From: a virus
Lineage: Duplodnaviria > Heunggongvirae > Uroviricota > Caudoviricetes
Virus record (IMG/VR): IMGVR_UViG_2630968414_000007
Direction: 5' to 3' (one strand)
Length of the DNA: 50,105 nucleotides
The number at the start of each line of letters is the position of its first letter. Within the stretch, counting starts at the first letter, position 1. Made by a program: the position numbers. Below, in pieces: positions 27,001 through 30,000 of the stretch.

Positions 27001-30000
27001 GTGAGCCCCGCTTTCCACCATTTCAGGAGGGTGTTCAAAGATCACCGGCAGAAAGTGCGGATCATGAATTTTGCCGTCGCGCACATCCCGGGCGTACTGC
27101 AGTTTCTGTCTGAACACCCCGGCGGGAGGTTCATTCGACTGGGTGGTCGTATACACCACAAACCCTTCCGGGCGGGAGGCAAGGCCACCGATGGCTTCAC
27201 GTAACATGTCCTCCGCCTTGTACTGCTTGCCAAACAGCCACAGCTCATCAATCAGCGTACCCACGGACTTGATACCGGACACCGTATTCGGATCGGCTGC
27301 CACCACCTTCAGGGTGGTGTCTGTCACCCGGTGGGTGATGGTCCGGATATGTGTCTGCACCTGACAGAGGTCATCCAGATCATCGTCCCGTCGTACCATA
27401 TCCCTGGCAGGGTTGAAGGCGTTGGCTGCCACCTCCACTGTCGGGGCCAGAATCGTGTAGCCCGCCGCCTGCCGCCAGTTCAGTAACAGTGCAGTCATCA
27501 TGATCCCTGCGGCCAGCGTGGACTTCGAGTTTTTCTTGGGGATAAGGATAAAAACTTCCTTGATATGGCGAACACCGGTCTGCGCATCGTAGGAGCCAAA
27601 CAGGGCCGCCACCAGGTCAAACACCCACGGTGCACAGGACTCCCCGAACGTCGGGCTACCCGGTGCATCCACAATCCGCAGTTGTTTAAAAATCGCCAGT
27701 GCATGTGCAGCCTGGTCCGGATAAATCGGAGCCGGAATAATCGACAGCCCCTTTTTCAGGCGCTCTGCCCAGTCCGGGCAGGCAGTGCTCCATACAGGTA
27801 TCATCCGTTGCCCTCATTATCGTTATTCACCACCAGTCGGGGTGGCGGTGGCACCGCAAAACGGTTAGCCGCTTTTTTCGCGGCATCACCTTTTGCCGAT
27901 TTTTTACCGGCATCGCCTTTTTTGTGGTGCGTGAACTGCGCCAGTCTCATCAGCCGCATCCAGCGCCAGTTCTGGGTCGGTAATTATCAGGTTTCTCCAC
28001 CAGAGATCTGCCCCATCAGCTTTCACCGGATCGGGAAGACCATCCTCCATATATCTCAATACCAGGAGATATCACCACGGGCGGTAGGCATCTCCGGATT
28101 GTTTTCGTCCGGCTGTGGTATTGCAGCCAGCCTCACGGCGACGGGGTTTATCCTCCTGCTCTGATTTTTTCTGCCGGTAAACAGGAACCTCATCCACCTC
28201 CACCGTCTTCGCATTGTTTACGGGCTATAAACGCAAGCACCTCCAGGATCTTTTGCCAGCTGCGAGCCTTTAACCCTGGCGGTCTTCGCCGAATAACCGG
28301 CGGCAATGGCTGACGCTGTTTTGTTTTTCCCGGACATGAGCGCCAGCGCAAATTTTCGTTTTTGCGTTGTCAGCACAGCCTCCTCCCGGGTCCAGAACGC
28401 ACTCAGCCGGGTATGGTTCAGCCCATTTTTCCCGGCGATCTCATGCCGCAAATGTTAACTGCTGCCTGGTTAACATTTGCTGAAAAAGCCAGTTAACATT
28501 TTTTCCGCACAACAAACTGAATAATAAAGATAAAAACCGCAAAAATGCCCGGACAGCCAGTTAACATGTTAACTGCCCTGAAACGGGAATTTTTTCTCTG
28601 CGTGAGAGGGGGCGCGGTGTCCAGGGCGATCGTTTTTTTTCGCCGGATGATCCCCCCCGGGTCTGGTCACAGGCCAGTGATTCCGTCGGCCCTGAGCGTG
28701 CCATCAGGAAGCTCAGGCAACGTCGGATCAGGCATACCACCCGCCGCTTCACTCGCTGACTTCTGGCGATGGCATTCAGTACAGAGGGTCCAGAGGTTCG
28801 TCTCCTCATTACCACCACCGAACTGAAGTGCAATGCGGTGATCGAGTTCACTGTCACAAAGGTCAACCACGCGTCTACAGAGACAACAGTGTCCGGCATC
28901 CCTCCGCCAGATACGACGTTTGAGGGAAACCCGGGCACTGCCACTGACACGACGCTGTTCCCCCCTCAGGACATTTATCCGCCGGGTGTTCAGAGTTTTG
29001 ATTCTGCCCGGTAACGTACGAAGCACAGCCATGTAAAATCCTCGCCATATAGCTTGTCACCAGAGGAAAGAAAATGTCATCGAAAAACCGGCCCCGCAGA
29101 ACAACAACCCGCAACATCCGATTTCCAAACCAGATGATTGAACAAATTAACATCGCTCTTGACCAGAAAGGTTCAGAAAATTTTTCTGCGTGGGTCATTG
29201 AATCTTGCCGCCGGGAGCTGGCAGCAGACATAAAATATGCCCGTCAGTTGACTATAAAAAAGAATGATACACAGTATGCTCTGCGATGGCTGTTCATATA
29301 ACTATTTCTTTATATTGCTGAATTTATAAAAACTCACAGACATTAGCTGTATTAATTCCGAATTGAAATAATCAGCCATATAGAATAAAAATAAAGCATA
29401 ACAATAATAATCTTCTACCCAATCAGTACATTACTGCTGTGACTCCAACACGGCAGTTTTTTTATTGAACAGATTCCAGTTTCTTCCACCATCGCACCGG
29501 ACGGGCGACCATGAGGGGAGAACGCCGCGCTCCGTTTACGCGGTAAACCCCGGTGTGTATCGTTTTTGATTATCCCCGCACACTCTCGCAGAGGAGTCTC
29601 CCTGTCGGGCTGCGGTCTCTGTTAATGCAGGAATACGGCGACGATACGGCGCATCAGCAAAACTTAGTTCAGGCACTGAGTGCGGATATAGTCCTGTGCC
29701 CCTTCCAGCTGCTTCTGCATTGTCATCAACCGTTCTCTGAGGATGAAATAATCCCGTTCAGCGGTGTCTGCCAGTCGGGGGCCGGTTGCATTATCCACGC
29801 CGGAGGTGCCGGTGGCTTCACGCACGGTACCGGAGCAGGTGGCGTTGATCCGCAGGCGCTTACGACCAGCGGCAACATCAGCACGCAGAGTTTCATTTTC
29901 AGCTCTCGCATCGGCTAACTCCCTCGAGTATTTTGCATCGAGCGCAGCAACATCACGCTGGCGCACCTGCATGTCAGTAATGGTGGCATTCGCCTGTTCC

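Follow-up and report, generated by a model that had tools for sequence, protein, structure and literature searches.

The closest described counterparts of the site considered here, a cluster of five short repeats beside the small-terminase gene (terS) in a 50,105-nucleotide stretch of Caudoviricetes DNA (IMG/VR record IMGVR_UViG_2630968414_000007, hereafter the window), are the cohesive-end (cos) sites of phages lambda and HK97 and the headful-packaging (pac) sites of SPP1 and SF6. Lambda cos consists of a nick site, cosN, and a binding region, cosB, with the elements R3, I1, R2 and R1, and is followed by the gene of the TerS protein gpNu1. In lambda and its phage-inducible chromosomal islands (PICIs) cosN is shared and cosB is private, and binding specificity is separable from cosN (PMC6739421). 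HK97 uses gp1 as TerS, gp2 as large terminase (TerL) and gp74 as HNH endonuclease, and its gp1, which has no helix-turn-helix (HTH) domain, reads a single 15-bp site (+15..+29) as the DNA leaves the central tunnel (PMC11331095). SPP1 and SF6, with the G1P TerS and pacL and pacR boxes, package by headful and have neither defined ends nor an HNH gene. The five repeats of the window, half-sites of the form GT(T/A)AACAT, are probably the cosB-like TerS recognition array of a 3'-cos site, and the array is best explained, from the sequences compared, as a hybrid whose ends, HNH endonuclease and TerL are HK97-like, whose TerS is SF6-like and whose several sites are arrayed as in lambda, the kind of element itself being well known.

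An earlier, sequence-only reading of the window had proposed that one GTTAAC-centred 10-mer occurs five times in about 125 bp. The hexamer GTTAAC and the 8-mer GTTAACAT/ATGTTAAC are indeed common to all five sites; the exact 10-mer, CAGTTAACAT or its reverse complement, has four copies in 28452-28575, and the fifth site, TGGTTAACAT, matches it at 8/10 positions. The exact copies lie on both strands, and the array stands between the HNH gene and terS, as that reading had held. The window contains 15 GTTAAC hexamers, against 11.3 expected, and 5 of the 15 fall inside 124 bp, while five or more were obtained in 0/20,000 first-order Markov simulations of the 288-bp intergenic region (mean 0.05, maximum 3). 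A chance origin of the five-site cluster is excluded, and the repeats are real and non-random. Outside the array the 8-mer has a single copy in the window, a lone ATGTTAACTG at 38919. Two GTTAAC hexamers 8 bp apart, the spacing found in the cos palindrome, also occur at 45989-46002 (GTTAACTGGTTAAC), far from the packaging genes. In virion coordinates, where +1 is 28606, the left chromosome end, and numbers rise toward lower window positions (Table 1), sites s1 and s2 form a perfect palindrome and are followed by a T-rich spacer, by s3, and by s4 and s5, which make up an inverted pair, ATGTTAAC-N9-GTTAACAT (28452-28476). The hexamer centres of successive half-sites are 8, 68, 23 and 15 bp apart.

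The position of the cut can be transferred from a close relative, the Shiga toxin (Stx) 1 phage Lys8385Vzw, which was induced and sequenced from virions and assigned by PhageTerm to the cos type, its 3' cohesive ends having the sequence CGCCCCCCCT (PMC7946995). Its record ends with ...GGACACCGCCCCCCCT and starts with CTCACGCAGAG... (longer start CTCACGCAGAGAAAAAATTCCCGTTTCAGGGCAGTTAACATGTTAACTGG...), these termini align to window 28606/28607, with the top-strand nick between 28607 and 28606, and in the 227 bp that begin at the left end 227/228 aligned positions match. The region had been put forward as a cos or pac recognition site; because the near-identical Lys8385Vzw has mapped 3' cohesive ends beside the repeats, the comparison supports cos and not pac, and speaks against headful packaging with terminally redundant, permuted ends. 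The proposed interval, 28452-28575, holds the cosB-like repeats and stops short of the predicted cosN, which lies 31 bp from the first repeat. The right-end flank of cosN is kept from Escherichia coli to Salmonella, Erwinia, Pantoea and Serratia prophages, and the 31 bp of the left end are conserved in the long-type phages, short-type phages and satellites described below. The cosN 10-mer is polymorphic among 69 unique related regions, with CGCGCCCCCT in 36, CGCCCCCCGT in 18, CGCCCCCCCT in 8 and rarer forms besides. Since it varies among close relatives, the ends of co-resident prophages would not all be mutually cohesive.

The window has a long-type cos region, in which terS starts at about +231 (GTG at 28376 on the minus strand, behind the ribosome-binding site GGAGGAGG). 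Among 238 long-type loci, which reduce to 69 unique cos regions, 68 of the 69 have exactly five cores at fixed positions. In the E. coli locus L028, where TerS is 65% identical, the cores are identical at 37/38 positions and the spacers at 123/190 (Fisher p = 1e-5), and a sixth GTTAAC has been gained. In L030 and L031, where TerS is 79% identical, all five copies carry the same T-to-A change, from GTTAACAT to TAAACAT, giving TATAAACATGTTTATA, ATGTTTAT and ATGTTTAC-N9-GTAAACAT, a change that leaves both the palindrome and the inverted pair symmetric. The comparison with cos regions of related phages, which the sequence-only reading had suggested, thus finds the motif present, its cores conserved and its copies changing in concert. 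T-tracts at about +52, +62, +71, +79 and +91 and an A6 tract at +103 stay in place across four diverged lineages in which the sequence differs, and this T-tract spacer suggests an intrinsic DNA bend between s2 and s3. No match to the consensus of integration host factor (IHF), WATCAANNNNTTR, was found in 28452-28606 with up to one mismatch, and its window-wide count is that expected by chance. Polymorphism among about 80 near-identical IMG/VR loci offered too little variation for a footprint.

The protein that would read the repeats is TerS. Pfam Terminase_2 (PF03592) matches only its residues 1-56, and the AlphaFold2 model of this N-terminal domain has four helices (4-14, 19-25, 33-41 and 44-55; predicted local distance difference test, pLDDT, >92), superposes on the DNA-binding domain of SF6 G1P (4zc3) with a template-modelling (TM) score of 0.84 and a root-mean-square deviation of 1.6 A, and also resembles the HTH domains of PaP3 and NV1 TerS. 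According to the model, TerS carries a classical HTH DNA reader of the SF6/SPP1 type and not of the HK97 gp1 type. The TerS of L030/L031 reads ...KSARCKG... where the window lineage has ...KTARVKG..., and the two substitutions, T32S and V35C, fall at the N-terminal start of the predicted recognition helix; motif and helix are paired in the same way in L029. This association was checked on two further sequences: P0013, with the SARC motif, has GTAAACAT at the sole site visible on its contig, and P0011, with the TARV motif, has six sites, 5/6 with GTTAAC and s2 with GTTAAT. An IMG/VR scan for TAAACAT-type loci with the 14-mer ATAAACATGTTTAT was non-specific, returning at least 120 unrelated AT-rich matches, and IMG/VR searches with the TerS variants P0023 and P0041 returned the common lineage only.

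Other relatives have a short-type cos region. This set (n = 17) consists of Salmonella phage FSL SP-016 and 16 prophage loci, the latter from 10 genera, namely Atlantibacter, Enterobacter, Kluyvera, Phytobacter, Serratia, Kosakonia, Citrobacter, Pantoea, Erwinia and Buttiauxella. In 17/17 the cos core is kept and terS starts 39 bp from the end, its start codon lying inside an imperfect palindrome, TGTAAACATGTTAACA (TGTAAAC ATG TTA ACA), homologous to that of the window. The first eight bases of terS (MLT...) are ATGTTAAC in all 17, with the rare leucine codon TTA, in contrast to CTG in long-type terS, the start of which is outside any site. In 12/16 short-type loci and in FSL SP-016 there is a second GTAAACAT about 30 bp upstream of cosN. 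By comparison, the long form of E. coli appears to be derived: between the old terS start and the new one it has about 190 bp with three more copies, the Shine-Dalgarno sequence of the old start is degraded, and its palindrome is now perfect.

PICI-like islands of two kinds code for a homologue of TerS and for a distant homologue of the capsid protein (23-26% identical to the capsid domain of the window, E = 1e-19 to 1e-20) and have no TerL. The first kind (L025-27 and L275) has an integrase, an AAA_25 or D5_N primase and then TerS, without HNH, TerL or DUF3950 genes, and the second (L034 and L276) has its own HNH gene. Their cosN is near-identical to the phage type, and identical to it in L034, and AAGTTACAC forms their repeats, of which L025 has 2 and L034 about 7, including an inverted pair; the first copy is at +31, and terS of L034 starts at +228, a geometry as in the phage. 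Compared with the E. coli phage TerS, the N-terminal DNA-binding domain is 57-61% identical in the satellites and 73.5% in FSL SP-016, and the C-terminal part 62-64% and 46%, respectively. Satellites with their own TerS and their own repeats on a shared cosN are what is expected if TerS reads the repeats. By these sequence features the islands are probably satellites of the Pankowvirus-type phage family. The satellite island (e.g. integrase ... primase ... TerS ... capsid homologue) sits between yejM and narP/ccm.

A tentative extension is that the half-site arrays and the TerS recognition helices might form private packaging-specificity pairs on a shared cosN, and that the satellites might hijack TerL, and the HNH protein where they lack one. 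There might then be at least two specificity groups among the long-tailed Stx-type prophages of E. coli, one pairing GTTAACAT with ...KTARV... and the other TAAACAT with ...KSARC..., and the satellites might hold a third pair on the same cosN, AAGTTACAC with their own TerS, besides their capsid homologue. If true, this would be a TerS-based mode of piracy new for HNH-type cos phages of Gram-negative bacteria.

A possible course of events can be drawn from these comparisons, in which we infer TerS to be the repeat-binding protein, the DNA to be bent and the HNH protein to take part. The N-terminal HTH domains of oligomeric TerS would bind the half-sites at +32..+49 and +108..+155 on concatemeric DNA, and the phased T-tract spacer would let the DNA curve round the TerS assembly. 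This complex would place TerL, aided by the adjacent HNH endonuclease, on cosN (28607-28616), 31 bp away, where staggered nicks would leave 10-nt 3' overhangs. Packaging would then run from the left end through terS, toward lower window coordinates.

Several observations weigh against a TerS-read array. The half-site spacings have no simple helical phasing, and TerS proteins of the SF6/SPP1 type are often weakly sequence-specific in vitro (PMC7672466). The record of FSL SP-016, a phage genome deposition, contains the palindrome and one upstream copy and no other site, from which it follows that s3-s5 may be accessory. The link between TerS helix and motif is found in one or two clades only and is phylogenetically confounded, so that it is suggestive rather than proof, and the HNH protein also differs between the motif-variant lineages (76% identical). 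Finally, terS is frameshifted in the window: either the site here may work only in trans, or the assembly may be faulty.

Three other explanations were weighed against TerS recognition. The one that survives best, and is still improbable, is that another reader than TerS, such as the HNH protein, the DUF3950/YlcI protein or a host nucleoid protein, organises or regulates the cos region. Ribbon-helix-helix proteins typically bind short repeats, the HNH and DUF3950 genes adjoin the site, and the HNH protein, as just mentioned, differs between the motif-variant lineages. Against a host factor speaks the coexistence of motif variants within one host species, E. coli, and no IHF consensus was found in the array. 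For the phage the HNH protein keeps some probability as reader, but the satellites L025-27/L275 have private repeats without HNH, TerL or DUF3950, so that TerS is the sole element-specific reader they supply. The DUF3950/YlcI protein was rejected as the repeat reader, for L030/L031 have no such gene and yet keep the array.

It is less probable again that the repeats are non-functional relics of the 5' end of terS (ATG TTA AC...), duplicated during the insertion of about 190 bp before the present start. The short-type relatives lend this some weight, because ATGTTAAC begins terS in all 17, the window palindrome stands at that ancestral position and the Shine-Dalgarno sequence there is degraded; the 13-16 nt that s2 and s3 have in common in each lineage are likewise what duplication or gene conversion would produce. 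Relics should nevertheless decay like the spacers, whereas the cores of L028 are 97% identical and its spacers 65%. All five copies of L030 change together, the copies lie in both orientations, the left palindrome arm has been improved to a perfect palindrome, and in the satellites another motif makes up an equivalent array in the same places. An origin by duplication is compatible with a present function.

The weakest alternative, a promoter or operator of the head genes or a 24-aa open reading frame (ORF) from the ATG of the palindrome, is very unlikely, as the weak sigma-70-like match (9/12) that two repeats make up at 28470-28499(+) points away from the head genes and is one of 2 found by a scan against 1.2 expected in shuffled sequence, even if the 24 aa are also intact in L028. 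The promoter and terminator scan gave nothing above shuffled sequence, and Rfam searched at E up to 1 gave no family match. The ORF itself (28497-28569 on the minus strand, MLTGCPGIFAVFIFIIQFVVRKKC) starts at the ancestral terS ATG and ends in the TAA of s3. It was rejected as a functional gene, having no Shine-Dalgarno sequence, being cut to 14 aa in L030 and owing its hydrophobicity to the T-tracts, of which it is probably a by-product.

Set beside the known systems, the putative TerS recognition array shares its layout with lambda cos: a nick site, half-sites in both orientations, a bendable segment and a terS gene about 200 bp from the end, with several repeats between cosN and terS as in a lambda-type cosB, and here too a binding-site specificity that appears separable from cosN. 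Unlike lambda, it has a predicted overhang of 10 nt (3') instead of 12 nt (5'), a TerS with a Terminase_2/SF6-type HTH instead of the winged HTH of gpNu1, phased T-tracts in the place of the IHF site I1, and an HNH partner together with a TerL of PF03354. Features in common with HK97 are the predicted 3' overhang of 10 nt, the HNH gene that directly precedes cos, the TerL of PF03354/PF20441, an A-tract close to the end and a putative TerS site a few tens of bp past the cut (PMC11331095). HK97 differs in the single gp1 site, in contrast to the SF6-like HTH TerS and the five dispersed half-sites predicted here from +32 to +155. The HK97-like packaging module with an HNH partner that the sequence-only reading had invoked therefore holds for the HNH gene, the TerL family and the 10-nt 3' overhang, and fails for TerS, which is of the SF6/SPP1 type and not gp1. 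With SPP1 and SF6 the locus shares the TerS family, the fold of the DNA-binding domain, multiple short boxes and probably bent DNA, and the motif copies on both sides of the cut in short-type relatives recall pacL and pacR; it is set apart from them by cohesive, defined ends.

The satellites likewise have partial parallels. As with the TerS of Staphylococcus aureus pathogenicity islands (SaPIs), the Ccm of SaPIbov5 and the cosB switching by Rpp, they combine a private TerS-repeat pair, a helper-type cosN and a distant capsid homologue. Known cos SaPIs, in contrast, carry the helper cos and no TerS, and known E. coli cos PICIs use Rpp with a lambda-type TerS. TerS-encoding E. coli PICIs have been mentioned, their helper not being identified (PMC6092414), and no satellite that encodes TerS and depends on a 3'-cos phage of the HNH type has been characterised before. 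For these Stx phages a literature search for a cosB or a TerS site yielded nothing beyond the cohesive end given by PhageTerm, and the searched literature contains no account of this hybrid site.

At 97-99% identity the region matches long-tailed lambdoid prophages from E. coli O157 and relatives, among them Stx1a-, Stx2c- and some Stx2a-converting phages, YYZ-2008 (genus Pankowvirus), 2851, BP-4795 and 1717. The locus was found in 1280/5426 complete E. coli genomes, with up to 7-8 copies per carrier genome. Such prophages carry stx1a and stx2c in E. coli O157, several copies per genome, and their packaging site tells which DNA, be it satellites or cos-bearing plasmids, each prophage can mobilise, how co-resident prophages avoid or allow cross-packaging, and how a terS-defective copy, as in the window, could still be packaged in trans. 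The natural series of GTTAACAT, TAAACAT and AAGTTACAC, each with a matching TerS variant, is also tractable material for studying DNA recognition by a TerS of the SF6 type within a cos system.

Table 1. Features of the cos region and its neighbourhood (window positions unless a locus is named; virion +1 = 28606).
Feature	Position	Strand	Virion coordinates	Sequence or basis
Exact copies of CAGTTAACAT or its reverse complement	28452-28461(-), 28490-28499(+), 28558-28567(+), 28566-28575(-)
Sites s1 + s2	28558..28575		+32..+49	CAGTTAACATGTTAACTG, perfect 18-bp palindrome, two head-to-head half-sites
T-rich spacer	28500..28557	-	+50..+107
Site s3	28490..28499		+108..+117	ATGTTAACTG on minus strand
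Site s4	28467..28476		+131..+140	ATGTTAACCA on minus strand, imperfect fifth copy
Site s5	28452..28461		+146..+155	CAGTTAACAT on minus strand
Left-end first 31 bp of virion	28576..28606	-		CTCACGCAGAGAAAAAATTCCCGTTTCAGGG; A6 tract +12..+17; matches Lys8385Vzw record start
cosN, predicted 10-nt 3' cohesive end	28607..28616	-		CGCGCCCCCT on minus strand; transferred from Lys8385Vzw, one substitution
Right-end cos flank, HNH stop codon to cosN	28617..28666	-		G7 run + CGATCGCCCTGGACAC
HNH endonuclease gene	28667..29032	-		PF01844; HNH annotation in relatives
terS, small terminase	27801..28376	-		PF03592 (Terminase_2), SF6-like N-terminal HTH
terL, large terminase	26143..27804	-		PF03354 + PF20441
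Prohead protease-capsid fusion	26079..24142	-
Satellite loci (E. coli)	L275 10001-10489; L276 6859-7332
Satellite cos regions (E. coli)	L025 1900-2000; L034 2250-2500

The intergenic region between the HNH gene and terS, both on the minus strand, is about 290 bp long, and the HNH protein is presumed to be a cos-cleavage cofactor. In the window terS is frameshifted at several points, whereas terL and the capsid gene are unbroken. It carries about 12 extra single bases relative to every complete E. coli genome (611 versus 599 nt; best match 96.1%), mostly at positions that differ between paralogous prophage copies, as though the two alleles had both been entered, which looks like a consensus artefact of collapsed prophage repeats, or else a pseudogene.

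A gene of the DUF3950/YlcI-YnfO family (29074-29301 on the plus strand) adjoins the HNH gene in divergent orientation; the N-terminus of its product resembles a ribbon-helix-helix DNA-binding protein, and the gene is absent in the L030 lineage. In the PPompW prophages (L277 2773-4231, corresponding to about window 28657) ISEc20, an insertion sequence (IS) of the IS110 family, directly adjoins the cos region, some 40 bp upstream of cosN; these prophages have no HNH or lysis genes, and their order is Q, tRNAs, IS, cos and terS.

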